The translations under genes were made by a program, and so were the position numbers. Source: a virus (lineage: Duplodnaviria > Caudoviricetes). Taken from it: a DNA stretch of 64,000 bases. The notes under the pieces were generated by a model, which did not search any database, was not told the origin of the DNA, and saw only the letters and a program-made list of their open reading frames with translations. Shown here one piece after another: positions 16,487-59,022 of the stretch; within the stretch, counting starts at the first letter, position 1; the number at the start of each line of letters is the position of its first letter. The stretch is taken from the IMG/VR virus record IMGVR_UViG_3300021387_000573, positions 32,001 through 96,000 of that record, one strand, 5' to 3'.

Positions 16487-17356
16487 CTACCTTTGGGACT
16501 TCCATTCTCGTTTGCGCTTTTTGTCATGTTCTTTTTGACAGTCTTGGCACCTACAGGTCTTTGTATTCTTCGCGCTGACGCGGACATCTCTTCCACAATC
16601 CACGCAAGTAATAATTTTGTACTCTTGCGGTACATACCCAGCGCAGTCCTTGCAATACTTCTTCGTGCCAGCTTTGTTCCCACGCATCAAGATCCCACAC
16701 TGTTGGCAAGTAACGATGTTCTCACCTATGTATTGAAGATACAGATACCCAAGATCGCGGAAGTCCGTCACAGCCAAAGCGCAATCTCCGTCGTTGTCGC
16801 AGAAAGTAACGCGTACAGATAGATTATCGTTTTTCTTCGGAAGATCTACGAGATGTCGAATGAAGAAATCGTTAATCATAAAGTCCTGTTTCATTCCACT
16901 CATAGAGACGTGTGCCATCTGGAATACATCTTTTGTTTTATAGACCTTATATCCAACCCAACCGTTGTTCTTTGGATTCCGAATGTTCAAAAGTTTTGCC
17001 AAACACAGAAATGAAAACAGAACCTGCTGATGCTGCTTTGACAGACCGCATCCACTGATTGTGTCGAGCTCATCCTTTGTGATCGGAACAAAGTATTGCT
17101 GAAACAGTTTATACTTCCCGGCAGAGGAGGCCAGTGCCTCGATGACTTCCTCCCACCTCAGAATGCTCTTTTTATACGGAGGATAGTTCTGGCTGATAAA
17201 CTCCGTCAACGCCTTTTGTATCCGAACTTTGCGATAGCCAAGCTCGTGGTAATAATATTTTGCCAAGATTTGTGCGGTCTGCCAAGCGTTATCACCCAAC
17301 GTCTTCTCTCGCAAACACTGTTCCGCATATTCTTTTTCATTCAGTATAATCTTCAT
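16487..17356 (-). CDS. Hypothetical protein with C-terminal Zn ribbons, coupled to the RNA polymerase gene
   Basis: 289 aa, four CxxC pairs; start overlaps the 3' end of the yonO-like gene. Confidence 0.65.
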   Translation of the reverse strand: MKIILNEKEYAEQCLREKTLGDNAWQTAQILAKYYYHELGYRKVRIQKALTEFISQNYPPYKKSILRWEEVIEALASSAGKYKLFQQYFVPITKDELDTISGCGLSKQHQQVLFSFLCLAKLLNIRNPKNNGWVGYKVYKTKDVFQMAHVSMSGMKQDFMINDFFIRHLVDLPKKNDNLSVRVTFCDNDGDCALAVTDFRDLGYLYLQYIGENIVTCQQCGILMRGNKAGTKKYCKDCAGYVPQEYKIITCVDCGRDVRVSAKNTKTCRCQDCQKEHDKKRKREWKSQR

Positions 17357-20114
17357 TGGGCTCCTCCAGGACGCACACAGTTGTCATCGTATATGTTTCG
17401 CCGCCGTATGTAAACGTATCCCCGGTATCAGAATCGCCATGCTTCGGATATGAAATCATGCCACCATTTGAACCGAGCAGGTTTTCAATAATTTGTTCAC
17501 CAGCGACAACCCACGCAAACTGCTTAGACCCCTCTTTGTGATAGCAAAGATCCAGAACAATGTCGCAGAGTTCTTTCTCATTTGGGCATATGATCTCCGC
17601 CTTCATTCTGAAGCGCCTGATGAAATCATCTTTTGTTTGCGGGAGTTCATCCTCGCTCATATAACCATCCGAGCGCATGAATTTCATATACTGCTGTAAT
17701 TCATGTTGGTAGTCGCGATATAGATCAGATATGGCTTGATAATCCTTTTGGCTATACTCGACACCGGACTTCATGATCGTATAATCAAAATCATTTGGCT
17801 TTGGTAATTGACCGTAATTAGGAAATACTTCTTCGATATGCCAGCAGATTCGATTTACAGTGCAAGGATTCATGCCGATCTTTTTATCTGTATCATAGTG
17901 AGACAAAAAGTCTTTGACTCGTTTAACCTTAAACTTTTTTCCTCGGAGTTCTTCGAGTGTGCAAATACCAAGATGGGCAAAATTCCTTCGGCAGCTCTTA
18001 TCATTGCCATTGATATAATCATCAATCTGCTTATTGAGGTTACTGTACACATAACGCATGAAATACGGCTTGTACGGCGCACATATCTCTCGGCAGAGTT
18101 TTTTGTATCCCTCGTCTTCAACACTATCAATATCTCGATATGAGAACCAGCAGGATGGCATCGGCTTGCAAACAATCCCTTTAATCCGATCTATTGTTTC
18201 TTGCTGAAATGCTTGCCCGCACATAACTCTGTACCGCAACGTTTTGTACTCATTAGATTCATGATCTTCAAACCCTGCACACGCTTCAATCATCGCAGTA
18301 ACATGGTTCGTTACGACGCCGATATCGTCATTAAAGGCTTTTTTATTACCTTCTATGATATCTTCTTCTTGCGGCACTTTCTTTTTCGCTTTCTTCTGCA
18401 AACAGAGTAGAGTTCGTGCATTCGGAGTGTTTTTAATGATTGTTCTGGCATTCGTAGTAAACACTGTATCGCCATCAAAATCGCAGCCATTTAGAGCATC
18501 CGCCATGGTATCCCATGCATTAATAAGGCACGCGGTTTTGATATGCTGAAACCAATTCAGCACCTCATCGCTTTTGTTGAGTTTCATCCTCCGAATATTG
18601 TGGATGCTGGTCATCGGAGCACGAAAACAACAGGCTTCATCAGCCTCTTTGTCAATCCAATATCTATGATAAATCTCTCCTGCATGAAGGAGCCCTGTTA
18701 CAGGAAGCCCGAACATACTTTGGCACAATGCATACAGATCTCCGCCAAGCATGGCAAAATTGGCATTAAGGCGAATAGAACCCTTCTTCGCAGAATCAAT
18801 CCGCTTCTTTATCATAGAGTGGATATTGCGACGAACATATGGGTCGTTGATCATGGCCGGTTCTACCATCAGCGCTTTAACATAATCGGCGGTCGCATGA
18901 ACAGCCTCTCTGTCATCCATACCTTGCCCGCATAAAAATGCCAAACTCTTGCGGTAGTCACCACCAAGAACATCGTTGATTTCCTGAACGGTTGATTCGC
19001 ATAATTCGTCAATCTCTTCATCCGTCATATTAATATCCTGAAGGAACTGATAGTTACTATCTCGAACGTTTTCCAGTTTCTCCGGAGTATCCTTCGTCGC
19101 AGAGAACAGATAGTGGTTTTCCGCGCAGTTCTTCGCGTAGTCTTCCCAACTGTCGTAGGAATCATAAAGCTTGAGCATAGACTCGGTGAGAATCATATCT
19201 GCTTCACGAACATCTCGCACGTCTCCCCAGACATCTTTGATGAAGTATGTTCCGGCGACCTTCTCTGCAAACTCAACAAAGTCAAAGGTATAAAGCATTC
19301 CCTTCGTCCACGCATTTCTGCAATTGAATCCGGAGAGTGTATGCTCCGCGTCTCCGTTCAGAAATCCGTTGACACGTCGAGAGTAAGCAGGAGAGATCAT
19401 GCCATTGCCGTCAGAGGCATCGTGCTCGATCTCGTAACCGTCTTCATATGTAAGTTCTGGCTCGCCATCCGTATCCGTATTAATTAGGATGACATCATCC
19501 TTGAACTTAGTCATACAGTCATGGACAACGATAACGCCATTCGGCTGCGGAATCGGAGTAGAACCAGAGCAGGTAAGGGCACAGTATGCTTCAAACTTTG
19601 CGGGGACGAGCTCCTTCTCCATGTTGCGCCCGTTATCAATACGTTTTCTCAACTCCGGCCAGAGAACGTCATTCACATATACGATGGTGCTTGTTTTAAC
19701 ACCGCCATTTGTTCCGAGTAAACGATGATAACGAACGCCATTGATCTTGAATCCTTGATTGGCGCGGTCGTAATCTTTGTTGCTATCCATAACAACGCAG
19801 ACGTAATCAGGCTGGAACTGCAATCTGTACAGGGCATTGTACAGACTGCGAATCCGAACCTTCGTCTCCGTGCTCTTCGGACGCTTTTTCTCGTTCTTGA
19901 TACTGCGCTGGATCTGCTTTACCTTGGCGTCATAGTCTTCTACACCATTGAGCTCATCGATCCACCGGAGCATCTGGCTGTCATTCAGAGCAACGATCAG
20001 GTCTGGGTAATCGCGCAGCGCGGTTTCCAGCGGAAGATCCAAATCCCAGTTCGCTCGCTTGAGCTGCTTGGTATGAATTTTATAAATAAGTTTCTGTGCT
20101 GCCTTTTGTTTCAT
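17337..20114 (-). CDS. yonO: YonO-like single-subunit DNA-dependent RNA polymerase (two-barrel, RdRP-related)
   Basis: 925 aa with SDGNGMIS, KGML, FRAP and catalytic NGCDFDGD; sits upstream of HU and late genes as in SPbeta. Confidence 0.85.
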   Translation of the reverse strand: MKQKAAQKLIYKIHTKQLKRANWDLDLPLETALRDYPDLIVALNDSQMLRWIDELNGVEDYDAKVKQIQRSIKNEKKRPKSTETKVRIRSLYNALYRLQFQPDYVCVVMDSNKDYDRANQGFKINGVRYHRLLGTNGGVKTSTIVYVNDVLWPELRKRIDNGRNMEKELVPAKFEAYCALTCSGSTPIPQPNGVIVVHDCMTKFKDDVILINTDTDGEPELTYEDGYEIEHDASDGNGMISPAYSRRVNGFLNGDAEHTLSGFNCRNAWTKGMLYTFDFVEFAEKVAGTYFIKDVWGDVRDVREADMILTESMLKLYDSYDSWEDYAKNCAENHYLFSATKDTPEKLENVRDSNYQFLQDINMTDEEIDELCESTVQEINDVLGGDYRKSLAFLCGQGMDDREAVHATADYVKALMVEPAMINDPYVRRNIHSMIKKRIDSAKKGSIRLNANFAMLGGDLYALCQSMFGLPVTGLLHAGEIYHRYWIDKEADEACCFRAPMTSIHNIRRMKLNKSDEVLNWFQHIKTACLINAWDTMADALNGCDFDGDTVFTTNARTIIKNTPNARTLLCLQKKAKKKVPQEEDIIEGNKKAFNDDIGVVTNHVTAMIEACAGFEDHESNEYKTLRYRVMCGQAFQQETIDRIKGIVCKPMPSCWFSYRDIDSVEDEGYKKLCREICAPYKPYFMRYVYSNLNKQIDDYINGNDKSCRRNFAHLGICTLEELRGKKFKVKRVKDFLSHYDTDKKIGMNPCTVNRICWHIEEVFPNYGQLPKPNDFDYTIMKSGVEYSQKDYQAISDLYRDYQHELQQYMKFMRSDGYMSEDELPQTKDDFIRRFRMKAEIICPNEKELCDIVLDLCYHKEGSKQFAWVVAGEQIIENLLGSNGGMISYPKHGDSDTGDTFTYGGETYTMTTVCVLEEPNEDYTE

Positions 20115-21220: not shown

Positions 21221-21368
21221 GCGGCCATAAATCCTCTCTTTCTGTTCTTATCAAGTTTGTTTCATATATTTGCATTAGTCAACAGTTACTATGACGGGCA
21301 ACCGCCAAGGGGCATCTCTGCAGCTACCAGGACGAATCACCGATGGGCATATCGGTATCGTCGATGGT

Positions 21369-21400
21369 ATTGTACTCCTTTATTATGCATTTGTCAACAG
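21369..21400 (-). promoter_or_regulatory. Sigma-A promoter within the conserved CTGTTGACAAATG box, driving the RNAP operon
   Basis: TTGACA-17 nt-TACAAT on the minus strand; a second box copy at 21269-21285. Confidence 0.7.
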
Positions 21401-24061: not shown

Positions 24062-25491
24062 CTGTTGACAAATGCAAAAAGGAGGTTTATACCATGAAAA
24101 AATTTGAATTGCCTTGCTATGATAGCCGAAAATCTTTTTACGGAAAAGCCGTTGTTCTGGAGGAAAACGGGGAAAAGACGCTCTACAGCTACGGCACACG
24201 GGTGTGCAAGCTGGACAAGTCCGGCCACTTCCGGCGGCTCTGGGGCGGCTATTCTGCCACAACTATGCGCCACGTTAACAGCTTTCTCATGCACTACGAT
24301 CAGGAGGGAGGCGGGAAGAACTGGTGGACTGCGCAGCCCGTGGCTTAAATCGGGCAAAATTCCGGAAAACCGGCGCGGACTTTTTGACGGACTTTTCCCC
24401 GCGAAACAACGGAAAATCCGATCCCATTCAACAAAATTTTAGAAAATCCAGGAGGGAAAAACTATGGAAAATTATCTTTGTCTATTCAGTAGCGAATACT
24501 TTACCGCCGGAAAAATCTATACCATGGTGGACTATTTGCCGGAAAATATCGGCGTACTTGTCTACGATAACCAGGGCTATCCGCACGGCCTGAGCTATGA
24601 CTTTCTTTGCAAGAATTTTCGGAAAATTTGAGGGAGGAAAATATCATGGAAAGAATCACAAAATCGGAATTTATCCGCACAATCACGGAAAATTTGACCA
24701 CGTTTGTCGGCAATGCGCGGAACATCACGGAGGACACACTGGAGGCAAAGCTGGACAGCTTGCAATTCTATGACGATGAAATTTTGGAAAAACGCACGGC
24801 CACGGCTCGCGCCACGTTCGTGGAATTTTCGGGCGGCAGTAGGCTCTATCTGAATCAGGCCGGAAAATATGAGTTTTTCCGCAATATCGGCCCCGCATGG
24901 GGCAGCCCACTCGGGAATACCGGCGCGGAATTTGTCGCCGTGAAATATACGGAAACTTTGAGCGACGGCGAAGACTGGACGCGTTGGACAGTTTATCTCG
25001 TGCATAGGTAAAGGAGGAAAATATGGAATTTCGCAATTATAAAGTCGCGTATCACTTTGAGCGGGATGGAAAATACATACGTAAAGTGGAAGAAATCATG
25101 GCTACAAGCGCCCAGGACGCCGCCGACACGATCCGGGAGGAATGCACCGATCTGAGCTATCCGCGCGTCGATCGTGTATGGGTGGAAACTTTGACCGCAT
25201 GGGAAGAAAGGGAGTTTGAATAATGCTGGAAAATTTGACGCGCAGCGGCTTTTGTTTCTTGCGCCAGGAAGACGAAAACCGCGCTATTTATGAAAACAAG
25301 TTTACCGGCCTTTGGCTTGTGGTAGATTTGGAAAACGATACATACAAAGTTGTGGAGGACTGAAATATGGAAAAACTGCTGGAAAAAATCAGAAAATTTC
25401 TCAACTCGGACTTCATGCGATCCTTTGCCAACGGTGTAAACGCGGCGCACATAGCTATGTGGACACTCTAACATAACAACAATATAACTTG

Positions 25492-25520
25492 TTGACAAAT
25501 GCAAATACATATGCTATCTT
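25492..25520 (+). promoter_or_regulatory. Sigma-A promoter within the TGTTGACAAATGC box
   Basis: TTGACA-17-TATCTT with upstream TG. Confidence 0.55.
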
Positions 25521-27577
25521 AATAAGGGAATCAGAAAATAAGATAGAACAAGCTGGAAAATTTGGAAAATATGGAGCGCCGGAGCGCGGAAAAATTGAAT
25601 TTGACGAAGAGCCGGACAGTTTCCGGCGCTCTATTGAAAAGGAGAAATAAAAATGGAAAATTCTGTTCATATCAACATCAACGGCCACGATATCAGTTTT
25701 TACAATCGCAGCGAGAGCACCCGGAACGGCTTCCGGCATGTGTCCAGCATGTTTCTTGACCATGAGCATGTGGGGCGCGGAATTTGTAACTATCTCAACA
25801 GGACATGGGAATGGTACAGCTTTCAGTCTTCCATGATCCGCGCCGTGGAAAATCGGATGGACGAGCGCCAGGACCGGCTGGAGAGCATCTACCGCCGCAA
25901 CAACGGCATCAAGCGCATGACGGCAGCGAAGCGCGGAGAATTTGAGAAAATTCTGGATGATGACAGCACCATGCAGCTCTACCGGGACACGATCAAGAAT
26001 CTGAAGGAGGTATATCACCGTTGAAAACCTACAGACTGGAATGGGAAATGCCGGACGGAGCATCCGGGCTGGAAACTTATGCGGACGATCTGGACGCGCT
26101 GAACGATCTGGAAGATTTGATCGAAGACGGCGCGGAATGGGCGCAGCTCATGGAGTCCGAAACATACGGCGGCATGGTCGTGGATGAAACAATCATCAAG
26201 GAATATCGGAGGGAATAATGGAAAAATTCAAGACGATCTCCGAGCTTGAAATCCTCAATTATGCGTGGCTGGAAGTCCTGAAGAAATACCAATACGCAGA
26301 AGAGCGAGCCAAACGCCTGTGGGCTCTTGGAAAATCCGCGCCCATTGCGGAGGCTCGCATGGAAAAACTGAAAGCCCAGGAACAGGAGCTTCACGACGCG
26401 ATCCTTGAGCTGGAAAAAACGATGAAATGTTAATTTGATAAGGAGGAAATACAATGCACGAAGTTACTTATATCAATTCCGTAGGCGTTGAAGTTGTGGA
26501 AACTTTTGAAACAGAAGAGGAAGCAACGGAATTTACAAGACACCTTGACGAGCGTATTAAACGTGGAACGTGCAAAGGTTACTGCTATCACAAGCCGGGA
26601 ATTAACAATCTGCGAGAGCTGGACGAGCATTGGGCTTGATGGATGAAATAACTATTTCATAAGGAGAAAAACATGAATTTCGTTGAATACTGGATTGCAA
26701 GAGTGAATCAGGCATATGACAAACTTGATTGTTCAAAACTGGACGAGAAGACACGGGACAGTTTGGTTTATGCCGCTTCAAATCTTGTTAGCGAGTTGGA
26801 AAAAGCGGCCAATTTGGCCGGATAAAGGAGGAAAACATGAAAGTCAAATATGCGTATCTGGACAGGCGAAACACTTACGAGCTGGAGGCACCGGCCAAAA
26901 TCAAGGATAGCTGGGGAACTCCGTGGGAAGTGGCGAGCTTCCATGTGGAAGATTTCACCGGAAAATCTGTGCGTATCAGATACTACGGGACAAACAAGGT
27001 GGCTCTGTTTCGAGCCTTGAAAAGACTGACCTACGGCGAGGATGGAAATCTTTACTGCCAAGTTGCAAACAAAGTTTTTCTCATTGGAACATGGGAAATC
27101 AAAGAACTTTGAAAGGTCTTGATATCATCTATAGCGAGGACGATAGCGGCTACTATGCACAAGACTTCAACGATCCGAAGCAGCCAGCCAGCCAGGTATT
27201 CCAGTCTGTGGAAGATCTGAAGGAAGCAATCGACAGCGGAAAAATCAAGCTGAAATAAAACAATCTTTTGATTAGGAGGATTTGGAAAATATGAAAATCA
27301 CAAGAGGCTTTAACGGCCAGACGATTGAGATCGAGCTGACCGAGAACGAACTTTACCAGGCGTATATCGAACAGGAGCATATCTTTGATAGAAACGATGT
27401 AGAAAACTACTTCGATGACTATGAAGACTCTGATTTTGAGACAGAGTACGGATGCAGCCGCGCAGAGGCCATGGAAAAACTGGACGAAATCGCCTATGAA
27501 ATGCGCAGAAACATCGATAAGTACGATATGAACTGGTATGACGCCCGTGAAGCGGCTATTGCGGAAAAACTGTAATT

Positions 27578-45552: not shown

Positions 45553-46534
45553 GAGATACTTATTCCGGCGGATACAAGGCCGCGCTCTTGGATGTATATA
45601 ACTTTCTGGAACGCGGACGACCTATCGAAGAGACATGCAGATCTAAGAAGCAGTATCAAACAATGGTGCGTTCTCTTCTGGAATTGCTTCTCCTGGATAG
45701 CATCGCCAGAGAAGACTTCATGATTTTTGGTGGTGCCTGCTGGGTGAAGCAAGCGCCGGACGGCAAGATCCTTTCTGTCAGCGCGAATAAAACAAAGGAT
45801 TGATCTCGGCTATACATATCAATTATAGGAGGTGCCGCTTATGGCCGAGTTTTGCAAAGACTGTTTTCTTGAGATCAATCCGTTGAAAGAGAATGAAACC
45901 GTCGTCCTCTCCGCGCAAGACGACCTGGATCTCTGCGAGGGTTGCGGGCATTGGAAGCGCGTGGTCGTCAGGATCAGACACAAGAACATCATTGATAGGC
46001 TCAAAGAGAATCATAACAAGAATTGACGCCGTAACAGCGTCATGGTAAAATCAAAACACAACATTAGGAGGAAATGAAAATGCAGAAGTATGGTGTTATT
46101 AAGACAGTAGGCAATGAGACCACCGTTCTCGAAGTGTGTAGCAGCAAGGAAGGCGCTTTTGTTGGCAAACAGCGCTACCGTGACGCCTATAAAGGGCAGG
46201 ATGTGCAGATCGACGCCATCAAGGGCGAGTTCGACGAGAACGGGAAGCTGGTCTACAACAAGTACACACTCCTGTACGAGCTCTGAGCATTGTTAAAAAG
46301 GAGGCGGCTCGGTTATGTGGTTAATATATGTCATTGGTTTCTTTGCGTTGCTCTTCTGGCTGGTGGACGGCATCCTGAATGCCACCGGCTGGACTGATCC
46401 TAAGGAACGCCGAGCCGCCAAGGCTTTTATCTTCACCAGTATGCTGAACGATAAGACGCCGAATGGCAAATAAAAGAGTGGTTTGATCCGCCTCGGCTGA
46501 GGTTGGGGCGGATAAAATTATCTCCACAAAACTG

Positions 46535-46563
46535 TTGACAAATGTAAAATCGTATGGTAGAAT
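46535..46563 (+). promoter_or_regulatory. Sigma-A promoter in the conserved box upstream of the recombinase
   Basis: TTGACA-17-TAGAAT with extended TG. Confidence 0.75.
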
Positions 46564-46595: not shown

Positions 46596-47564
46596 ATGAA
46601 GAGCATGATCGAAGGCAGCAACGTCTTGAAGCCCGATTTCGGCTGGTACAACGAGCCGCAGCAAACTGAGATCGTAGAGATTGCCAGCAATGAGAAGCGT
46701 GAGCATTGCGGCAAAAGAGTGGGGCAGAAGTCTGAAGTGTTCGCTTACGAACCCGCCGATGCCGCAAAAATGATTGCCTATTTCGCCTCGCATCAAAAGT
46801 GGATTCACTATCTCCTGTTTACGATTCAGACGATCTCCGCCCGCCGAATCGGTGATCTGATCGGGTATTGCAGTAAGCAGAGCGGTAAAAAGGAAAGCGA
46901 CGGGCTTCTCTGGTGTGATTTCTTCCATCCAGCGAACGGCAAGTTTCGTAGAGAGATCCGTTCTTTCAAGGAACAGAAGACCGGCAAACTGGCCAGTCCC
47001 ATGATTCCGGAGGCGATGCGTGATGCCATCACGCTCTATTGCGAGAAAACAGGCTGTGATCCATCGGCAAACAACTATCAAAACCCTGTTTTTCTCCAGC
47101 TTTCCGGGACGCACAAGGGTAAGGTTGTTTCCTATGCAGGCGTTCAAAAGGCGCTGAAAGAAGCTGCTGCTGCATGCGAGATCGAGTACAATGTCGGCAC
47201 ACACAGCGCCAGAAAGACATTCGGTGCCGCAACGAAAATGCTCCATCCCGGCGACGCCTCTTGTATCGAGGCGTTGCAAGGCTACTATAACCATAGTTCC
47301 AGTGCTATTACAAACCGATACATTGGTCTGACGAAAAAGAAGACTGACGGTTATGTTGAGGACATGGGAAAATTCTTCAATGAATACATCGTTGGCGGCA
47401 AAGAGATCCCAATGCAGATTGCGTCTCCGGTAATCTCAGTAGATACTGAGGCTCTGTTCCAGTTAATCCAGCAAGCGTTCTACGCAGGGAAGAACAGCGA
47501 TGGTTCAAACGACGCAGCTCTTGTCATCGAATTAACCAAGCAGATCAACAACATCAGGAAGTGA
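46596..47564 (+). CDS. Tyrosine recombinase/integrase
   Basis: Full catalytic set: RRIGD, EQKTGK, HSARKTF, NHSS, TNRYIG. Confidence 0.9.
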   Translation: MKSMIEGSNVLKPDFGWYNEPQQTEIVEIASNEKREHCGKRVGQKSEVFAYEPADAAKMIAYFASHQKWIHYLLFTIQTISARRIGDLIGYCSKQSGKKESDGLLWCDFFHPANGKFRREIRSFKEQKTGKLASPMIPEAMRDAITLYCEKTGCDPSANNYQNPVFLQLSGTHKGKVVSYAGVQKALKEAAAACEIEYNVGTHSARKTFGAATKMLHPGDASCIEALQGYYNHSSSAITNRYIGLTKKKTDGYVEDMGKFFNEYIVGGKEIPMQIASPVISVDTEALFQLIQQAFYAGKNSDGSNDAALVIELTKQINNIRK

Positions 47565-47765
47565 GGGAATATGCAGACGGCAATCATTATAATTCTGGCG
47601 GTTGCTCTGGCGGTTGTGAGTTTTCTTTACTACCGCCAGGGGAAACTCCTCGATAAAATCAGCGCGAAATACATAAGCGACCATCGTTGTTTGCAAAATT
47701 TTGCTAAGGCTTTCCTGACAGAAGAATAAAAATTACAAAACAGTAAAATTTTGTTGCCAAAACTG

Positions 47766-47794
47766 TTGACAAATGTATAATGTTTTGATATAAT
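47766..47794 (+). promoter_or_regulatory. Consensus sigma-A promoter in the conserved box upstream of mazF
   Basis: TTGACA-17-TATAAT. Confidence 0.8.
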
Positions 47795-47827
47795 GTCATC
47801 GAAATCAAAAGAAAGGAAGATGACGTT

Positions 47828-48229
47828 ATGTCGGATCATAGGCAGCAGAGTTATCCTCGTTGTTATGAGATATGGATGTGCGATCTTGGCAGCAATGGCG
47901 TCGGGATACAGAGTGGTTATCGTCCTGTTCTGATCCTGTCAAATGACAGAAATAATCTGTTCTCTCCGACAGTTAACGTCGCTCCTCTGACAACAAAAAT
48001 GAACAAACGTAATCTGCCGGTTCATGTGGAGCTCTGGAACAACAGGGCGTATGGCCTGCTCTCTCCAAGCACGATTCTGATCGAGCAGCTTACAACTGTT
48101 CATGTCAACGCGCTCGACAGAAAGATTGGGCAGATCACGGATGATGAAACGCTGGCCCAAATTTATACCGCAGTCAGTGTCCAGTTCCCGATCATTCAGG
48201 CGTTATCAACTCTTCCTCTTACTTCTTAA
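47828..48229 (+). CDS. mazF: PemK/MazF family endoribonuclease
   Basis: EIWMCDL...QSGYRPVLILSND..N..SPTVNVAPLTT...LPVHV...S.IL.EQL.TV. Confidence 0.85.
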   Translation: MSDHRQQSYPRCYEIWMCDLGSNGVGIQSGYRPVLILSNDRNNLFSPTVNVAPLTTKMNKRNLPVHVELWNNRAYGLLSPSTILIEQLTTVHVNALDRKIGQITDDETLAQIYTAVSVQFPIIQALSTLPLTS

Positions 48230-48243
48230 AGCAGTTATAACTG

Positions 48244-48272
48244 TTGACAAATGTAATAAGATACTATATATT
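48244..48272 (+). promoter_or_regulatory. Promoter in the conserved box upstream of the MrpR-like gene
   Basis: TTGACA-17-TATATT. Confidence 0.6.
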
Positions 48273-48290
48273 GAGGAAGAGGTGATGACT

Positions 48291-49319
48291 ATGGCATCAA
48301 ATACGTTTGATGTGTTTGCGCGATTTTGTGAACAGTCCTTTCCAGATGAAACAAGACGCGGCAGAATCTACAATCTACTTGCAAGAAAAGAGCTCTTGGA
48401 GGAAGAAGCGAAGCTCAATAAAAGCTTCTTTGATTTTTCGGCCAGCGAGATAGAGCATTATCTGAGCAATTTATATAACAACGCATATCGCCGCAGTGAT
48501 AAGATTCGCCCATCCAAATCTTATCTCCGCAATCTGGTTAGTTATTATCGCAGAGCCTTTGCATTCTATCTTGCCGAAACCGGCGGCGGAGAGAACCCAT
48601 TAGAAGACAAGCGTTTTCGCTATCTTGGATTTAAGAGCCAGGATAATGTCACAATTTTTACGAGAGAAACGCTGGAGAACCTTTGCCTTTCTATCGGTGA
48701 TAGATTCGATCCGGGTGACGCAGAGTTTACACAGCTTATTCTCTGGTTGTTTTATTCCGGATGTTTCTCACTGGATGATATCCTTGCTATTCCGCAGGAT
48801 GGAGTTGACTTTGTAAGGAATATCGTCCACCTTCCAGATAGAAATATTCATCCGCAAGAGGAATGCATGGAATTGCTGAGGCGGAACCACGAGATTGAGA
48901 GTTACAAAGCTTATAAATACACCAATCTAATGTTTCCTTATCACGGCAGTTATGTGTGGTTCCCGTATCGTATGACGAAGACGCCGGATGGCTCCGATCC
49001 TTATGACTATGCCTATCGGCAACACCAAGAGCGTACAGAAGGGCGTGTCAGAGACCTGATCAGCAAGCGGCTTACCAAGATCCGTAACGAGATAGGTGTC
49101 TTTATTCGCCCAGATGCACTGTACTATCGCGGTATTTATGATTATATCGTTTCTAAGTGCGGCAAGCAGCATGCTAAGGAAATCATATGGTCAGATACTG
49201 GGCGCAATACCTTTGAAGAATCCGATGAGTTTAAGCAATATCTTCGTGAGTATGGGGCCAGGATAACCGATGATTCAGAGATATACAAAATAAAGCGAAG
49301 TCTTTTTGAATTCCTGTAA
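48291..49319 (+). CDS. MrpR(YopR)-like repressor with degenerate tyrosine-recombinase fold
   Basis: E..LNKSFFDFSASEI, ENPL, IFTRE.L, LILWLFYSG...DI, IRP.ALYY.G; no HxxR catalytic motif. Confidence 0.55.
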   Translation: MASNTFDVFARFCEQSFPDETRRGRIYNLLARKELLEEEAKLNKSFFDFSASEIEHYLSNLYNNAYRRSDKIRPSKSYLRNLVSYYRRAFAFYLAETGGGENPLEDKRFRYLGFKSQDNVTIFTRETLENLCLSIGDRFDPGDAEFTQLILWLFYSGCFSLDDILAIPQDGVDFVRNIVHLPDRNIHPQEECMELLRRNHEIESYKAYKYTNLMFPYHGSYVWFPYRMTKTPDGSDPYDYAYRQHQERTEGRVRDLISKRLTKIRNEIGVFIRPDALYYRGIYDYIVSKCGKQHAKEIIWSDTGRNTFEESDEFKQYLREYGARITDDSEIYKIKRSLFEFL

Positions 49320-49323
49320 TAGC

Positions 49324-49348
49324 CAATGGGAGCATTTTGCTCCCATTG
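49324..49348 (+). terminator. Hairpin terminator after the MrpR-like gene
   Basis: CAATGGGAGCA/TGCTCCCATTG, 11-bp stem. Confidence 0.55.
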
Positions 49349-49388: not shown

Positions 49389-50060
49389 GTGAAGGCATTG
49401 TCCCTTTGTTATGTGATTGCGGATTCCAGCGGTCGGTATATCATGAAAAACGCAGCCAATCAGTACGTGCCGGTCTACGATCTTGACTATGCCGAGAAAT
49501 ATGATTCGCCGACAAAGGCAAAGAACGTACTAAATTCCTGTATCAACCGCAATATGCGCAAACTTTTCAGCGTAAAAGAAACTGAGATTGACGAGAAAGA
49601 AACCGTCACTCGGCAGACCAAGACCGAGCAAACACCAGATATATCGGTCAAGATTACATATCGTCCAAAACAGGATCAACTTCGACGGCTGGCGGCACAG
49701 GAGGTAGGAGAGGAAGATCTATCGTTCTCTAAGAGCAATATTCTCAGCGCCATTGGTAATATAGAATCAGTGCGCGAGAGAAAACTTGCGCTCCAAGAGC
49801 AACACAGCGTTATCGAAAAAGAGATTATGGACATCGAACACTACATCGAACTGAGCGATGGTCTGAACGCCTATCAGGGCTGGCTGGCTTACATGACGCT
49901 GCGTAAGCGGCTCAAGATACGCCGGCAGGTAAAAGATGAGATCACGGTGCTTTCAGATGTTGAGGATGTCATGAGCGGTCTGAAGAAAACAATATCTAAG
50001 ATCAACGGTTTGAATGGACGCAGGTATGAACCTCGTGTTCTGACGGAACTTTTCACATAA
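49389..50060 (+). CDS. Hypothetical coiled-coil protein
   Basis: 223 aa; DIEHYIE...RR.VKDE...Y.PRVL. Confidence 0.6.
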   Translation: MKALSLCYVIADSSGRYIMKNAANQYVPVYDLDYAEKYDSPTKAKNVLNSCINRNMRKLFSVKETEIDEKETVTRQTKTEQTPDISVKITYRPKQDQLRRLAAQEVGEEDLSFSKSNILSAIGNIESVRERKLALQEQHSVIEKEIMDIEHYIELSDGLNAYQGWLAYMTLRKRLKIRRQVKDEITVLSDVEDVMSGLKKTISKINGLNGRRYEPRVLTELFT

Positions 50061-50085: not shown

Positions 50086-50159
50086 GGCCGGTTCGTATAA
50101 CGGTAGTACATCGGACTTTGACTCCGGCAGCGATGGTTCGACCCCATCACCGGCTGCCA
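50086..50159 (+). tRNA. tRNA-Gln(UUG)
   Basis: TCGGA-CT-TTG-AC-TCCGG arm, GGTTCGA, CCA end. Confidence 0.85.
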
Positions 50160-50189
50160 TAAAAAATATAAAATTCTATAATAAAACTG

Positions 50190-50242
50190 TTGACAAATGC
50201 AAAACGCTTTGCTATAATACAAGAGGGTCAAACGAGAGACCC
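50190..50242 (+). promoter_or_regulatory. Consensus promoter in the conserved box plus leader hairpin, upstream of the tRNA array
   Basis: TTGACA-17-TATAAT, then GGGTC-AAACGAGA-GACCC. Confidence 0.8.
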
Positions 50243-50449
50243 CATAAACAGAGAATCAAATACATTGAAAAGCAACTAAAACCTTGCTGAGTCTAATCTA
50301 CATATTGTCACTATATACCGTCTCCTTCATAGTTCTCCTTCCGAAATTTAGACTCAACTAAAACGCAGCAGACGCCTGCTGTAATCCCAGAGTTGCCCAT
50401 AGGTTGGTGGCACCAGGTCTCTGGGACATAGATTAAAAGGAGAGTCGAT

Positions 50450-50635
50450 ATGACTTACAAGTTCAAATGCCCGTCATGTGGGAAGCAAACAGAGATCCAG
50501 ATGCGAATGAGCGAATATCGATCTGACGGCCATATATGTGAGTGCGGTGCGGAGCTGGTGAGAGATGTGTCAGATATGTGTACCGCCTACTCGCTGAATT
50601 GCACCGGCTTCTACTCGGATCATCCGTCGAGGTGA
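50450..50635 (+). CDS. FmdB-like zinc ribbon protein
   Basis: MTYKFKCPSCG...CECG..L.R...GFY. Confidence 0.65.
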   Translation: MTYKFKCPSCGKQTEIQMRMSEYRSDGHICECGAELVRDVSDMCTAYSLNCTGFYSDHPSR

Positions 50636-50873
50636 GCCATGATAGATTCTGTAGCAAGTTTTCTTGAACGGTACGAATGGGGTTATCCATTCGATCAGAA
50701 CGATGATACCGTTGACCGCGTTGCCATGAAGCGGGAACTTGATCGGCACATGGTGATTGTTGAGAACCAGAGGTTTTATGAGCCAATCTCGGTTAAAACG
50801 CCGCCGAAAAAGAAAGAGTCAAAACGGCACTTTCTTGGCTGTTAATCAAATCGAGGTTTTATCCTCGATATAT

Positions 50874-50949
50874 GCCTCATTAGCTCAGTCGGAAGAGCGG
50901 CGGCTTTGTAATCCGCAGGTCTGGAGTTCGAATCTCCAATGGGGCTCCA
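50874..50949 (+). tRNA. tRNA-Thr(UGU)
   Basis: TAGCTCAGTCGGAAGAGC D-arm, TT-TGT-AA loop, GTTCGAATC, CCA. Confidence 0.85.
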
Positions 50950-51265
50950 CGGCCTTCATGTGCTGCCATCTATCGGTAGCGATACATGCGAAATGATACA
51001 TACGTCGAGCGGGCCTTATAGGCGGGGCGTTAATCACAGGGGAAGGACACACGCCATGCCCTGTCGCTCAAAATGTCCTTCAAAAAGATGCCATCCTGTC
51101 TGTGCAGAGACAGGTGAGGGGCTGCACTCCCCAAAAGGTTCAAGGGCTATCCTTAAGTGCCTCGGACACCTCGCCCGTTGAGGAGGGAAGTGCTGGTAAG
51201 TGCGGGTAAACACCAGACGCCAGAACATAAGGGCATATGGAATGGCAACAATCCCGATTTTATAT

Positions 51266-51352
51266 GGGTCGGTATACCGTATGTGGAAGCGGTGCGGGCT
51301 GTAAACCCGTTGGCTAACGCCTCAGTTGGTTCGACTCCAACGCGGCCCACCA
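51266..51352 (+). tRNA. tRNA-Tyr(GUA)
   Basis: CT-GTA-AA loop, long variable arm, GGTTCGACTCC, CCA. Confidence 0.85.
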
Positions 51353-51450
51353 TCAATCGACCATAAGTGCTTCTCCCGCGCTTTCGGTTGGTCGTCAGGA
51401 GTAAGGTGTGCAATCCTGAGAAAATCGTTTGTGTACACCAGGGAGAACAC

Positions 51451-51526
51451 GCGCCTGTAGCTCAGTTGGTAGAGCACCGCCCTTTTAAGGCGGGTGTCCG
51501 GAGTTCGAACCTCCGCAGGCGCACCA
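51451..51526 (+). tRNA. tRNA-Lys(UUU)
   Basis: CCGCC-CT-TTT-AA-GGCGG arm, canonical D and T arms, CCA. Confidence 0.9.
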
Positions 51527-51531
51527 TATTG

Positions 51532-51608
51532 GGGCCGTTAGCTCAGTCGGTTAGAGCAGTTGACTCATAATCATCAGGTCCTGGGTTCAAGTCCCAGGCG
51601 GCCCACCA
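51532..51608 (+). tRNA. tRNA-Ile2(CAU) (or elongator Met)
   Basis: GGGCCGT acceptor, CT-CAT-AA loop, Ile2-like overall, CCA. Confidence 0.8.
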
Positions 51609-51963
51609 CTCCAATGGGGTTGTGTCCCGGAGGAGAAACAGATTAGTCATTCGAGAAACCGTCAGTGGAGCCGATCTTACGAGGAGGTCTGCGTAGAAGC
51701 TGCGGAGGCGCGATCCCGATCTCTGTAACATTCTCCACCATGGCAGAGACGGTTCAGCGAAAACAATGCTTTCGCGATAGTGTGGATAACGAGAGCTGCC
51801 GGTTCGTTTCAACGGCTTTTGGAATCGGCAAACGCTTGGTTTATGCGGCGGTGCGCAACGCGATAAACCCGTATTCAGCAGAGCGAGTAGATCCTGCTGG
51901 CTGGCTGCGTGAGCCAGGTAGAGCTTGCCGCCGGAGTGAGTGAAAGAAACGCATCCGGCATCT

Positions 51964-52048
51964 GCCCTCGTGGTGGAACTGGTATACACATACGGCTTAA
52001 GTCCGTATGCCGCAAGGATTGAGGGTTCGACTCCCTCCGGGGGCACCA
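51964..52048 (+). tRNA. tRNA-Leu(UAA)
   Basis: GTGGAACTGGTATACAC D-arm, CT-TAA-GT loop, variable arm, CCA. Confidence 0.85.
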
Positions 52049-52236
52049 GAAGGCCGGTTCGATTCCGGATCAATGATAGAGGGCATGGTTGCGACGGGGT
52101 TCTCCGGGCAGGATCGGAGATGATGTGTGCCGAGTCAGATGGCGTCTCTCGGCTAACCTTCGGGCTTGACCCGACAGTAGGACAAGATCCATCGTCATGG
52201 TAAGGACGATGTAAAACGGCCAGAGATTCCTAATAT

Positions 52237-52312
52237 CCAGGGCGAAGTGTAATGGTTTTGCACTCCACATTTGGGATGTGGAAGAGCGGTTCGATTCCGA
52301 CGCCTTGGGCCA
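52237..52312 (+). tRNA. tRNA-Pro(UGG), divergent T-stem
   Basis: CCACA-TT-TGG-GA-TGTGG arm, GGTTCGATTCC, CCA. Confidence 0.7.
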
Positions 52313-52315
52313 TAC

Positions 52316-52406
52316 GGCGGCTTGGCAGAGCGGCAATGCACCCGACTTGAAATCGGAGGTCTGGCCTAGTAAGTCAGCAAAGGTTCGATCCCTTTAGCCG
52401 CCGCCA
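52316..52406 (+). tRNA. tRNA-Ser(UGA)
   Basis: CCCGA-CT-TGA-AA-TCGGA arm, long variable arm, G73, CCA. Confidence 0.85.
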
Positions 52407-52528: not shown

Positions 52529-52855
52529 ATGAAGAAAAAGCGTTGCGGGAGGCCAAAGATAGAAATGAATTCTGATGAATCTATGCGTGCTATAGACGCC
52601 GTAATAAAAGACCTTATATTACATATTCAGGAGCTCGAAGCCGAAAATGCCTCCCTTCGCGATAAGGTTTATCGGCAATCACATAAGTTGACTGCATTGG
52701 CAAACCGCGCACAGGAGTTGGATGTGAAGAATATTTATTTGTGTCATAAGATAGAGGTTGCAATTCAATATATCAAGGGTGCCTGTTACGATGATGGGAT
52801 GCGAAATAGAACGGTTAGGCGATTGTGGAAAGCGCTTGATATTCTTGGAGGTTAA
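52529..52855 (+). CDS. Hypothetical coiled-coil protein
   Basis: ORF after the tRNA array; start uncertain. Confidence 0.45.
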   Translation: MKKKRCGRPKIEMNSDESMRAIDAVIKDLILHIQELEAENASLRDKVYRQSHKLTALANRAQELDVKNIYLCHKIEVAIQYIKGACYDDGMRNRTVRRLWKALDILGG

Positions 52856-53511
52856 GAAGAGAATTGGCGATAGCCTTTAGCCATAGACGGCCTGTAAACA
52901 CATTTCATGAGAAGAATCTTTTTCATAGAATCGTGGTAATGGTATTTTTCTTTTTCGCCATTTAGATATCTTTTGTATTCTGAAAATCTGTATTCTGCGG
53001 CTTGCCTTGATAGACCATAAACGCGTTCAATATCTTCTATCGTATGAATTTTAAAAAGAGAGAAGGTTGGGAACGGTGACAATAAGGATGCCGCAAAAAA
53101 GTCTGCTTCTTCTTCCAATTCGTGTCTATCGAAATAAGAAGATAGACGCTTTTCATTGGACGCATCACATATCTCATCGAAGTGCCCGCAAATAACATGT
53201 CCAAATTCATGGGCAAACGTCCATCTAATTCTATTGTAACTTGACGTAAACCTGGACGACTGATTTGCGAGGATTAAATATCTATCTCTTGATGAATCGT
53301 ATTGTGTGCATCCGGTGTAACTTTTGCAGGCAGCAATTACATCATGAAGAGATGTGCTACTGATTTGCGCAAGGTCATAATAAGACATCGCTCGGCAATT
53401 CGGATAAAGCGATATGGCCATTTTAGGGTCCAATGGAAATTGGATGCGATCTAAATTGCAGAAAATAGTTAAGATAGCATAATCTACTCGATCAAAAATA
53501 AAGTCTCGCAA
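52852..53511 (-). CDS. immA: ImmA/IrrE family metallopeptidase (antirepressor protease)
   Basis: RWTFAHEFGH (HExxH), EEEADFFAASLL. Confidence 0.85.
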   Translation of the reverse strand: MRDFIFDRVDYAILTIFCNLDRIQFPLDPKMAISLYPNCRAMSYYDLAQISSTSLHDVIAACKSYTGCTQYDSSRDRYLILANQSSRFTSSYNRIRWTFAHEFGHVICGHFDEICDASNEKRLSSYFDRHELEEEADFFAASLLSPFPTFSLFKIHTIEDIERVYGLSRQAAEYRFSEYKRYLNGEKEKYHYHDSMKKILLMKCVYRPSMAKGYRQFSS

Positions 53512-53856
53512 TTAGGAATCATCTCCAAATGCATATTTAAAACCAGCTTTAATGATATTCATTGCCTGCTCCCAGTCTTTCTCAGGCATGTTTTGCTTGG
53601 CTCGCTGGAGAGCAATGATACTCTCGTCTCCCAAGACTTCTTTAGCACCAGCCTCGATATCAGAGCTTCCGAGAAGAAAATCGACAGACACGCCGAGATA
53701 TTCGGCAACCTTTCTAATCATGCTGGAACGCGGATCAGACACCTTCCATTTATAAATTACGTTCGCACCAAATCCGAGTTCTGATTCAAGTTTTGAAACA
53801 GTAATCCCATTCTTTTCACAGAGCGTTTTGATTCTTTCGAATGTGATATTAGACAT
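53512..53856 (-). CDS. XRE-family HTH repressor (ImmR-like)
   Basis: IKTLCEKNGITVSKLESELGF...KVAEYLGVSVDFLLG; adjacent to ImmA. Confidence 0.85.
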   Translation of the reverse strand: MSNITFERIKTLCEKNGITVSKLESELGFGANVIYKWKVSDPRSSMIRKVAEYLGVSVDFLLGSSDIEAGAKEVLGDESIIALQRAKQNMPEKDWEQAMNIIKAGFKYAFGDDS

Positions 53857-56829: not shown

Positions 56830-58011
56830 ATTCTTGTAAACGGAGAAAGAGCGCTGGCCTACGTCGTCAGCATCGATGAAATCAAACCTATTGATGGCTA
56901 TGACCGCGTGGAATACGCCCGCACCAATGGCTGGTGGGTCATCATCGGCAAGGCAGACGGCCTGAAGGTCGGCGACAAGTGTGTCTACTTTGAGATCGAC
57001 AGCAAGGTTCCTGCTTCCGACAAGCGCTTCGAGTTCCTTGAGAAGCGCAACTATAAGATCAAGACCCAGCGCATGTGCAAGGTGATCTCTCAGGGCCTGC
57101 TGATGCCTCTGTCCGCTTTCCCGGAGCTGGGCGATGCCGAGATTGGAACCGACGTTACAAAGAAACTCGGTGTTACATACGCGGTCGCAGACGATAACGA
57201 CCGCAAGCGCAATTTCGGCGATCCTAATGCCAAATATAAATCCATGGCGGCTCGCCACCAGAAGCTGTTCCAGACCAAGCCTGTCCGCTGGTTCATGCGC
57301 CGCAAGTGGGGCAGAAAGTTCATGTTCCTGCTCTTTGGCAGGAAGAAGGATAATCCCAAGGGTTTCCCGGATTTCATCAAGAAGACCGACGAGGAACGAG
57401 TCGAGAATCAGCCGTGGCGCATTGGGGACGGCAAGACCTATCTTGCCACCGAGAAGCTGGATGGTACGAGCTGCACTTATGCACTCCGGCGTTTGCCGAA
57501 GAAGGCGTTCCGGAAGCAGGAGTATGAGTTCTATGTCTGCTCCCGCAACGTCCGCCAGAAGGATGAGAATCAGGCGTGTTATCACGACCACAATATCTAC
57601 TGGGATCTGGCCTTCAAGTACAACATCGAAGATTGTCTGCGCAGTATCCTGTGCGCGTTTCCTGATTTGGAATGGGCCTGCATCCAGGGTGAAGGCGTCG
57701 GCTCTGTGCAGGGCAACCCCCTGAAGCTTTCTGCCGACGACCTGTATGTTTTCAACTTCGTCACGTCGAAGGAAGGCCGCTGGGATTCGCGGCGCGGCAA
57801 GGAGCTGATGGGAATGTACGGCTTGAAGTGGGTGCCGATCCTCGGAGAAGTCACTATGCCGGAATCAATGGAGGAGCTCAAGCTCCTTGCAGACGGTAAG
57901 TCTGTCGTCAATCCTGCCGTAGCTCGTGAAGGTATCGTCTATCGCTCTCTCGACGGACAGGATTCCTTCAAGAACGTGTCCCGTCAGTACCTGCTGAAAC
58001 ACGGAGGTTAA
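56830..58011 (+). CDS. ATP-dependent RNA ligase (Rnl2/DRB0094-like), probable ATT start
   Basis: VYFEIDS, SQGLL, KTDEERVEN, motif I EKLDGTS, QGEG.G, REGIV, SFK; frame extends to ATT at 56830 after AAGGAG. Confidence 0.85.
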   Translation: MLVNGERALAYVVSIDEIKPIDGYDRVEYARTNGWWVIIGKADGLKVGDKCVYFEIDSKVPASDKRFEFLEKRNYKIKTQRMCKVISQGLLMPLSAFPELGDAEIGTDVTKKLGVTYAVADDNDRKRNFGDPNAKYKSMAARHQKLFQTKPVRWFMRRKWGRKFMFLLFGRKKDNPKGFPDFIKKTDEERVENQPWRIGDGKTYLATEKLDGTSCTYALRRLPKKAFRKQEYEFYVCSRNVRQKDENQACYHDHNIYWDLAFKYNIEDCLRSILCAFPDLEWACIQGEGVGSVQGNPLKLSADDLYVFNFVTSKEGRWDSRRGKELMGMYGLKWVPILGEVTMPESMEELKLLADGKSVVNPAVAREGIVYRSLDGQDSFKNVSRQYLLKHGG

Positions 58012-59022
58012 ATGAACAAGCCTATTTTCTGGATGATGGTTGGCTTGCCGGGGAGCGGCAAGTCCACCATCGCCAAGATCATCCAGCGCAGCGTACCGAA
58101 CACCGTGATCCATTCCTCGGACGAGCTTCGCGGTGAACTCTTCGGCAACGTCAACGACCAAAGCAAGAACGACCAGCTTTTCACAGAGCTGCACCGGCGA
58201 ATCAAAGCGGATCTCGTTGCCAACAGAAACGTGATCTACGACGCCACCAACCTCAACAAGAAACGGCGGGCATCCTTTCTTGCTGAGTTGAAGCACATCG
58301 ATTGTTTCAAGCAGTGTGTTCTCGTTCTCGCACCTCTGGATATCTGTCATGTCCGCAATGACAACCGTTTTGAACGCCAAGTTCCGGGCCCCGTCATCAA
58401 TCGTATGTACATGAACTTCCAGCCGCCGTTTTACTCCGAGGGATTTGACGCGATCTCGATCGAGTATAGCTACAAGATCGAAGACACCTTCCGCAAGTAC
58501 GATCTTGAAAAGATGTTCAAGCCAAACTCGTGGTTTATGAATTTTGATCAGGAGAACAAGCATCATCGTCTTACGCTGGGCGCTCATTGCGATGCCGCAG
58601 CTTCTTATATCTCGGGCATTATTACCGAAAGAGAGAGAAACGGAGCAGACGACGAAGAACTTAACCGGCTCGCTACTCTTGTTGACGCAGCGTGGATTCA
58701 TGATGTTGGCAAACTCAACACCAAGACGCGGGTGAACGCCAAAGGCGAAGACGATGGTCAGTGTCATTACTACCAGCACCATTGCGCCGGCGCTTATGAC
58801 TGCTTCTTTTATCTGCGAAACTGTGAGAAATCCTGTGAGTTGGATTCTCCTGAGAACGAGGCCAGAAATCTTTACATATCAAACCTGATCTATTGGCACA
58901 TGATGCCGTACACGGCTTGGAAGCAGTCTGAGAAAGCCAGAGAGCGCGATAAGCGGCTTATGACCGAGCAGATGTATGAAGACGTGCTCCTGCTCCATGA
59001 AGCAGACATCGCAGCACACTAA
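58012..59022 (+). CDS. Polynucleotide kinase (P-loop) fused to HD phosphoesterase
   Basis: MVGLPGSGKST, SSDELR, IYDATN; HH..TL..H, IHDVGK, YYQH, WHM, HEAD. Confidence 0.8.
   Translation: MNKPIFWMMVGLPGSGKSTIAKIIQRSVPNTVIHSSDELRGELFGNVNDQSKNDQLFTELHRRIKADLVANRNVIYDATNLNKKRRASFLAELKHIDCFKQCVLVLAPLDICHVRNDNRFERQVPGPVINRMYMNFQPPFYSEGFDAISIEYSYKIEDTFRKYDLEKMFKPNSWFMNFDQENKHHRLTLGAHCDAAASYISGIITERERNGADDEELNRLATLVDAAWIHDVGKLNTKTRVNAKGEDDGQCHYYQHHCAGAYDCFFYLRNCEKSCELDSPENEARNLYISNLIYWHMMPYTAWKQSEKARERDKRLMTEQMYEDVLLLHEADIAAH

Follow-up and report, generated by a model that had tools for sequence, protein, structure and literature searches.

The locus examined here raises the question of whether a temperate phage can hold a MazF-type ribonuclease of its own within its lysis-lysogeny module. 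It spans positions 46,596 to 49,319 of a 64,000-nucleotide stretch of viral DNA (the window), which is bases 32001-96000 of the 124,755-bp IMG/VR record IMGVR_UViG_3300021387_000573 (estimated completeness of the record, 81%). An initial annotation, made from the letters alone, read the locus as three neighbouring genes, for a tyrosine recombinase, an orphan MazF and a repressor resembling MrpR of the SPbeta phages. Two features of those phages give the reading its interest: host MazF promotes lysogeny in phi3T and SPbeta and is blocked there by two phage proteins, AimX and YosL (PMC10769878), and MrpR is a non-catalytic DNA binder (PMC10516654). We find that the three genes are part of a conserved cassette of four to five genes, which encode a second recombinase, a small protein specific to the clade, MazF, a dead recombinase resembling MrpR/SroF and a coiled-coil protein of 215-225 amino acids that we call D. 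The chances seem to us about even that this cassette corresponds to the lysogeny operon sro (yopM-R) of SPbeta/phi3T, here with a MazF carried by the phage.

We analysed the fold and the conservation of the protein encoded by the third gene (48291..49319, + strand; 342 amino acids). A longer start at 48102, which overlaps mazF and is unsupported by relatives, was rejected. The AlphaFold (AF2) model built from the family alignment (mean predicted local distance difference test score, pLDDT, of 75) has a tyrosine-recombinase fold with CB and CAT domains, and no family scores above threshold. In a Foldseek search of the PDB the top matches were phi3T SroF (9rgl_G, 4.6e-6; 9rd5_H, 7.5e-6), followed by the Tn1549 integrase, XerA and MrpR/YopR. 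VIA gave Z 14.3 for 9rd5_H, a SroF-DNA structure (root-mean-square deviation 7.7, 269 residues aligned), and Z 12.2-12.5 for 9rgl, 8bj6, 8bpz and 8a0a; these five top rows are all SroF/YopR/MrpR, and the true integrases gave Z of at most 12.0. The likeness to MrpR that the initial annotation had proposed is therefore borne out by the structural comparison, and is accompanied by a weak signal for PF22822 (MrpR_N_CB).

That signal is seen in 9 of 11 relatives (best 0.0025) and in 31 of 83 (best 8.3e-5). Weak matches to PF00589 were found in 9 of the 83 family members. An alignment to YopR by hhalign gave E 0.0033 at a probability of 10%, weak and collinear; the similarity to MrpR/SroF covers the CB domain and reaches into the beginning of the CAT domain. 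A profile search of PDB sequences gave no significant match, so MrpR was not reached by sequence, and pattern searches for close MrpR-like relatives in genome and viral contigs found none. Likewise, neither megablast with the region nor tblastn with the MrpR-like protein gave a match among 50,697 phage records. A full hidden Markov model search collected 198 family representatives at 50% clustering, all of 320-345 amino acids, the identity within the family being 20-43%; the broad family alignment was too diverse to serve as a search query. Invariance across 83 family members is limited to T5, E39, G157 and G281, with K44, Y93, N102 and G291 close to it. The CAT domain has no conserved Arg, His or Tyr, i.e. 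the recombinase catalytic set (R, K, H, R, H/W) has been lost, and the usual position of the first catalytic Arg reads G-C/A/V-F/L/Y (alignment read by eye). This loss fits a non-catalytic DNA binder such as MrpR. The protein shares with MrpR/SroF (PDB 8A0A, 8BJ6, 8BPZ, 9RD5, 9RGL) the CB and CAT fold, a length of about 320-345 amino acids and the missing catalytic set; it differs from them in its low identity (13-17% in structural alignments), in a PF22822 score below the cut-off and in an aromatic loop at residues ~202-227. Judging from the model, the third protein probably works like MrpR/SroF as a remote relative of it, and is a candidate DNA-binding repressor. The loop is a strongly conserved aromatic stretch, PYHGSYVWFPYR...DPYDYAY, with very low AlphaFold confidence. 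It is a candidate interaction loop in the model, with no counterpart noted in integrases. The gene is followed by a hairpin (49323..49348, +; CCAATGGGAGCA-TTTT-GCTCCCATTG, no clear T-run), which was read from the sequence, was not in the terminator scan and is possibly a weak terminator or a processing site.

The middle gene (47828..48229, +) encodes a MazF/PemK endoribonuclease of 133 amino acids (PF02452, PemK_toxin, 76.1 bits against a cut-off of 23.1; phrog_1936). It aligns over its full length with the S. aureus and B. subtilis MazF structures (4MDX, 4MZM; 7e-17), and has in common with the B. subtilis (EndoA/NdoA) and S. aureus enzymes the PemK/MazF fold, the catalytic Arg/Thr and the GxRPV, SPT and (I/L)EQ motifs. 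Within this fold, the module MazF forms a separate subfamily with invariant W16, C18 and W70. In 30 relatives the catalytic Arg32 and Thr55 do not vary, nor do most of the motifs that contact RNA. The suggestion that the protein acts as a decoy of host MazE/MazF, which had been offered alongside a nuclease role, is unlikely because these catalytic residues are invariant.

We also looked for an antitoxin. As had been annotated, none resembling MazE lies between mazF and its promoter: the -10 hexamer ends just 33 nt before the mazF ATG, with no open reading frame (ORF) in between, and the gene downstream has the recombinase fold. More generally, no MazE-like gene or fold (ribbon-helix-helix or AbrB-type) was recognised upstream or downstream of mazF, unlike the B. 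subtilis and S. aureus MazEF pairs; the gene here differs from those also in being phage-borne. A 52-amino-acid ORF upstream of the mazF promoter (47571..47729, +), which the initial annotation had put forward as an antitoxin, has a hydrophobic N-terminal stretch that, by eye, reads as a membrane helix. It has no match in Pfam or PHROG and is kept in the window's own subclade only; other genes or long leaders replace it in most relatives. We therefore rejected it as a general antitoxin.

The 5' end of the short mazF leader can form a hairpin (47795..47824, +; GTCATC ... GATGAC) whose loop contains the Shine-Dalgarno sequence. In relatives, the corresponding GTTATC ... GGTAAC contains one compensatory change and one wobble, and the pairing is retained. 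The leader in the window does not contain UACAUA, the sequence at which related MazF enzymes cut (see below). Most relatives (L011, L016-L022, L024-L031, L036) have instead a mazF leader of ~110 nt, ~150 nt upstream of mazF, which the window's subclade lacks. This longer leader has a hairpin at its 5' end and a long-range pairing of GGGCTGGA with TCCAGCC; UUACAUA, which is invariant, immediately precedes the Shine-Dalgarno sequence and lies 19-36 nt before the mazF start codon. An Rfam scan of the relatives' mazF leaders gave no relevant match. The long leader may be a self-cleavage or riboregulatory element.

We next asked how far the arrangement is conserved. The synteny sample comprised 46 IMG/VR loci found with a MazF profile, 24 of which encode a MazF at least 48% identical to that of the module. 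In all 24 the MrpR-like gene lies 37-84 bp downstream of mazF, in 22 a recombinase lies 0.3-3 kb upstream, and in 19 protein D (205-250 amino acids) directly follows the MrpR-like gene. The survey thus upholds the three-gene grouping, whose ORFs lie where they had been annotated. In genome assemblies, three of five close matches have mazF followed by the MrpR-like gene. Four metagenomic relatives keep the order recombinase, small ORF, mazF, MrpR-like gene (MrpR-like proteins 40-53% identical), and the order also holds in a lineage whose MrpR-like protein is just 25% identical. MazF is far better conserved than its partner across relatives (48-67% versus 20-43% identity). More distant phage MazF genes (36-41% identical; L042-L053) are not followed by an MrpR-like gene. 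Such solitary genes, of the PHROG 1936 'MazF-like growth inhibitor' type, are present in the early regions of gut Clostridia phages, with Blautia, Faecalimonas and Enterocloster among the hosts. They resemble the module gene in this setting and differ from it in sequence (36-41% identity) and in the missing partner. In protein D of the window (49389..50060, +; 223 amino acids) a small beta/alpha domain at the N terminus precedes a long coiled-coil hairpin. The protein has no Pfam match, belongs to a PHROG family of unknown function and gave no informative fold match in the PDB; its fold matches in BFVD and Atlas are uncharacterised phage proteins only.

The distribution of the presumed cleavage site bears on what the MazF might do. 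U^ACAUA is the strict cleavage site of the B. subtilis, Listeria and S. aureus MazF (10.64898/2026.08.06.743204), and from the sequence similarity it is the likely site here too. On the sense strands of the 188 called genes of the phage, TACATA was observed 49 times, where synonymous-codon shuffles gave an expectation of 22.4 (z 6.4), and ranked 2 of 4096 hexamers; TACATC, TACATG, TACATT and the reverse complement were not enriched. Avoidance of the MazF site by the phage was therefore rejected, UACAU itself being found 132 times against 114 expected. Transcripts of phi3T and SPbeta are likewise enriched in MazF sites (10.1101/2023.04.27.537455). The excess was greatest downstream of the module, in genes on the plus strand (21 versus 5.3). 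Many phage genes hold exactly one TACATA.

Between 44 and 54 kb the plus strand has seven TACATA (44389, 45813, 47670, 49655, 50299, 50997 and 52620) and no TATGTA; none of the seven falls inside the module recombinase gene (int), mazF or the MrpR-like gene. The same tendency is seen in 28 non-identical relatives, in which many of the sites are inherited and hence are not independent: the MrpR-like genes hold 2 sites versus 8.3-8.7 expected and the int genes 1 versus 3.3, and the neighbouring plus-strand genes 78 versus 51, with control hexamers flat. In relatives the spacer between int and mazF almost always contains one site; in the window this is 47670-47675, within the 52-amino-acid ORF. 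The D gene of relatives also nearly always has one, usually at conserved His-Tyr-Ile codons (TAC ATA). In the window's D this codon site has been lost (TACATC), and a new site is present 190 nt upstream (49655-49660). In the larger clade the mazF coding sequence itself holds a site (Asn-Thr-Tyr). A cut site in both leader and coding sequence of mazF in most relatives sets these genes apart from B. subtilis and S. aureus mazF.

Each of the three genes has a near-consensus promoter of its own, scored by a consensus scan as sigma-70 hexamer matches out of 12, and each promoter contains an exact copy of the box ACTGTTGACAAATGTA (at 46531, 47762 and 48240), which is an extended -35 element. The recombinase promoter (46531..46563, +) consists of the box, 17 nt and TAGAAT (TTGACA-17-TAGAAT at 46535-46563, 11/12 matches). 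That of mazF (47762..47794, +) is TTGACA-17-TATAAT at 47766-47794 (12/12, with TG before the -10), and that of the MrpR-like gene (48240..48272, +) is TTGACA-17-TATATT at 48244-48272 (11/12). With up to three mismatches allowed, nine copies of the box are found in the window against 0.54 expected; besides those of the module, box promoters lie at 21386, 24061 and 50186, among others. The whole 124.8-kb record contains 11 copies, and nearly all early transcription units, the phage RNA polymerase operon among them, have the box in front. Because of these 11 copies, the box is the general early-promoter box of the phage and no mark of the three module genes: the annotated promoters stand, the idea that their box singles out the module does not. 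In the spacer between mazF and the MrpR-like gene, a promoter-like TTGACA-type motif is present in 19 of 24 relatives (simple pattern match). A LexA (Cheo) box, GAAC-N4-GTTC, was found nowhere in the window.

The first gene (46596..47564, +) encodes a tyrosine recombinase of 322 amino acids, as annotated, with PF00589 (Phage_integrase) at 32.6 bits, above the cut-off of 27.1 (phrog_216). In contrast to the MrpR-like protein it looks catalytically intact and active, because the catalytic set is kept in 29 relatives (R83/R84 in ARR83-84, K128/K131, H203-x-x-R206, H233 and Y242). It is, however, probably not the integrase of the phage. It sits mid-genome rather than at a prophage end beside attP/attB, and a canonical 395-amino-acid tyrosine integrase with SAM-like domains is encoded outside the window, at record positions 120124-121311. 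After this gene come a stretch resembling a tRNA 3' end and, on the opposite strand, lysis genes (an endolysin with CHAP and peptidoglycan-binding domains), so the sequence at 120124-121460 of the record is likely the attP region. Given that arrangement, the module recombinase is a second enzyme. No serine recombinase was found; a third recombinase-family ORF, of 346 amino acids, is located among the structural genes (record 24933-25973). In position, the module recombinase corresponds to YopP (SroD) of SPbeta. BLASTP between the two was not significant, so 'YopP-like' refers to its position and family only.

The rest of the genome provides the setting for the cassette. The minus strand carries the portal, the terminase, an exonuclease of the YonJ type, an HU-like protein and, at 17337-20114, a 925-amino-acid single-subunit RNA polymerase of the YonO type, which matches SPbeta YonO at 8e-30 (27% identity). 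Two copies of the shared promoter box drive transcription of the polymerase operon, with promoters at 21286 and 21401 (-). A YopX-family gene is on the plus strand. The large terminase subunit, TerL, is 35% identical to that of SPbeta, and the homologues of portal, YonJ, YonN, YonO and YopX are in matching order. The YonO homologue and this gene order point to a distant SPbeta-like phage. The isolate Ruminococcus sp. YE282 has in its chromosome an integrated relative with matching gene order and 42-64% protein identity. The YE282 contig (NZ_FMUV01000001.1, 207 kb) has bacterial genes for PcrA, ValRS, ClpP and ComM up to ~94 kb, where the prophage lysis genes begin directly after comM (Mg-chelatase-like). 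The group is temperate, as shown by this collinear relative integrated beside comM, its host group is Ruminococcaceae/Oscillospiraceae, and in this large temperate phage the cassette is placed in the early region. On the sense strand of the YE282 prophage TACATG is absent (0 observed versus 14.9 expected), a deficit that suggests strong avoidance of a CATG-type restriction site.

We compared the cassette with the sro operon (sroA-F, i.e. yopMNOPQR) of SPbeta and phi3T. Both are found in large YonO-encoding temperate phages, as early cassettes that combine a tyrosine-recombinase gene (YopP/SroD) with a dead recombinase-fold repressor (YopR/MrpR/SroF), here a repressor-like protein. Both are linked to a MazF RNase, with site-rich phage messages and a spared repressor cassette, and both phages have a repeated element at many early promoters. 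In SPbeta, MrpR binds about ten copies of this element, SPBRE, at promoters throughout the prophage that include yonP (before yonO), aimR and its own operon (yopM) (PMC10516654). There are also differences. Here MazF is phage-encoded, directly upstream of the repressor-like gene, whereas SPbeta and phi3T use host MazEF under arbitrium; each gene has its own promoter instead of forming one operon; and the host is of the Clostridia (Ruminococcus-type), not Bacillus, with marginal sequence similarity of the repressor. Integration, too, is apparently by a tyrosine integrase and not by a serine recombinase such as SprA of SPbeta. We found no homologues of SroA/YopM (the MazE binder), YopN, YopQ/SroE, AimR, AimP or AimX with the queries used. 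When SPbeta YopK (AimR), YopM and YopN were compared by BLASTP with every ORF of the record, nothing was found at E<=0.01, in a search of low sensitivity on a record that is 81% complete. Within that sensitivity, the statement of the initial annotation that no arbitrium genes are visible holds.

How might such a cassette work? We infer repressor action on the box, cutting of UACAUA by the module MazF and, as a result, an effect on lysogeny. The MrpR-like protein would bind DNA as a repressor, its target possibly being a 16-20-bp box that overlaps the -35 element of about 11 early promoters, those of the YonO operon and of the module itself included. The phage's own MazF would cut UACAUA, and its activity would lower lytic gene expression while sparing the lysogeny genes, since UACAUA is over-represented in the phage's remaining messages, and those of int, mazF and the repressor-like gene lack it. 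Such cutting would favour or stabilise lysogeny, and a phage-borne RNase would do the job that host MazF does under arbitrium in phi3T/SPbeta. In its fullest form the proposal is of an antitoxin-less phage MazF, strict for UACAUA, that would work as an inbuilt lysogeny switch at the post-transcriptional level: it would cleave the majority of phage messages (about one site per gene), spare those of the recombinase and repressor, limit itself in most lineages through sites in its own leader or coding sequence, and replace arbitrium and host MazEF in a family of gut Clostridia phages. We put this forward tentatively, and doubt that all of it will prove right.

Several observations weigh against the proposed mechanism. 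The SroF fold match is just 2 Z units above those of true integrases, and the PF22822 score of 14.5 bits is below the cut-off of 27, so that Pfam does not admit the protein to the family. The specificity of the module MazF for UACAUA is assumed from its ~40% identity to the Bacillus and Staphylococcus enzymes. As to the sites, their absence over 2.4 kb in the window alone is not significant (about one is expected), and the TACATA excess in the YE282 prophage is weak (47 versus 29) and not strand-specific. The bias could also be driven by a host enzyme, because the YE282 host genome has two canonical MazF genes of its own. The box could be merely a strong-promoter consensus, and relatives show other extended -35 contexts. 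In the window's subclade, moreover, the cells would have to tolerate MazF without an antitoxin. Finally, a gene pair 3.5 kb downstream of the module (52852-53856, -) could be the real lysis-lysogeny switch. It encodes an XRE-type helix-turn-helix (HTH) protein (114 amino acids) and a Peptidase_M78/ImmA-like protein (219 amino acids), by sequence a predicted switch of the classical ImmR/ImmA type, and is transcribed away from a gene for a protein of 323 amino acids.

Three other explanations, not fully mutually exclusive, have to be set against the proposed switch. If the HTH/M78 pair were the true switch, the recombinases would act on DNA (in dimer resolution, excision directionality or architecture) and MazF would be an unrelated early gene. 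The divergent consensus promoters of that locus (53896, +, and 53990, -), with the palindrome ACTATCTGATAGT in the spacer of one of them, are as such a switch would have them, the pair is also present in relatives L004 and L013, and the module recombinase retains all its catalytic residues. Yet SPbeta has XRE-type regulators too (YonR, YopS and YopO), and MrpR is nevertheless its master repressor (PMC10516654). Nor could a dead recombinase without catalytic residues recombine, and the invariant adjacency of mazF and the distribution of MazF sites would be left unexplained; we consider this explanation improbable. The module might instead be a toxin-antitoxin-like or defence 'moron' that stabilises the prophage or aborts or excludes superinfection, with no role in the phage's own lysis-lysogeny decision, in which case the MrpR-like protein, D, a small protein or an RNA would be the unrecognised antitoxin. 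Such a moron would account for the strict adjacency of mazF and the MrpR-like gene, for a partner that evolves much faster than the toxin, as antitoxins do, and for a host-type promoter before each gene, as in morons expressed from prophages. Gut phages commonly have MazF-like 'growth inhibitor' genes with no antitoxin next to them (phrog_1936), and the structured ~110-nt leader of most relatives, with its invariant UUACAUA, could be a brake at the RNA level. However, no MazE-like fold or family was found, and the partner has a full DNA-binding recombinase fold that resembles a known repressor. The module also occupies the position of the SPbeta sro operon, and enrichment of sites in the phage's own messages with avoidance in the lysogeny genes fits self-regulation better than defence. 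On these grounds a moron seems unlikely to us, if less so than the HTH/M78 switch.

MazF could, lastly, be a nuclease of host takeover that cuts host mRNAs in lytic growth while the phage protects or repairs its own RNAs. An RNA-repair pair of RNA ligase and polynucleotide kinase (56908-59022, +) adjoins a cluster of eight tRNA genes (50086-52406, +), which starts directly after protein D and has a box promoter at 50186 (the phage has nine tRNA genes in total); both would suit this role, as would the strong early promoter before mazF. A nuclease used in this way would, however, be expected to spare phage messages if it had the specificity of the Gram-positive MazF enzymes, and the phage's own coding strands are enriched in UACAUA, with UACAU not depleted. 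We regard host takeover as very improbable.

The components of the proposed lysogeny switch and the SPbeta circuit are known; an antitoxin-less phage MazF wired to an integrase-fold repressor is a new variant, and in the literature searched we found no paper describing a phage-encoded MazF beside MrpR-like genes. Recent work on SPbeta and phi3T has identified host MazF as the effector by which arbitrium signalling tips the phage to lysogeny. If the proposed switch is true, it suggests that a phage has built in a tool of dormancy control that SPbeta-type phages borrow from the host, and a type II toxin would have been domesticated without its antitoxin. It would offer a compact three-to-four-gene system, with a cultivable lysogen in Ruminococcus sp. 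YE282, among abundant phages of gut and rumen Firmicutes. The cleavage of mRNA by MazF would then be a general, ancient part of the integrase-fold repressor system, and not a peculiarity of Bacillus.

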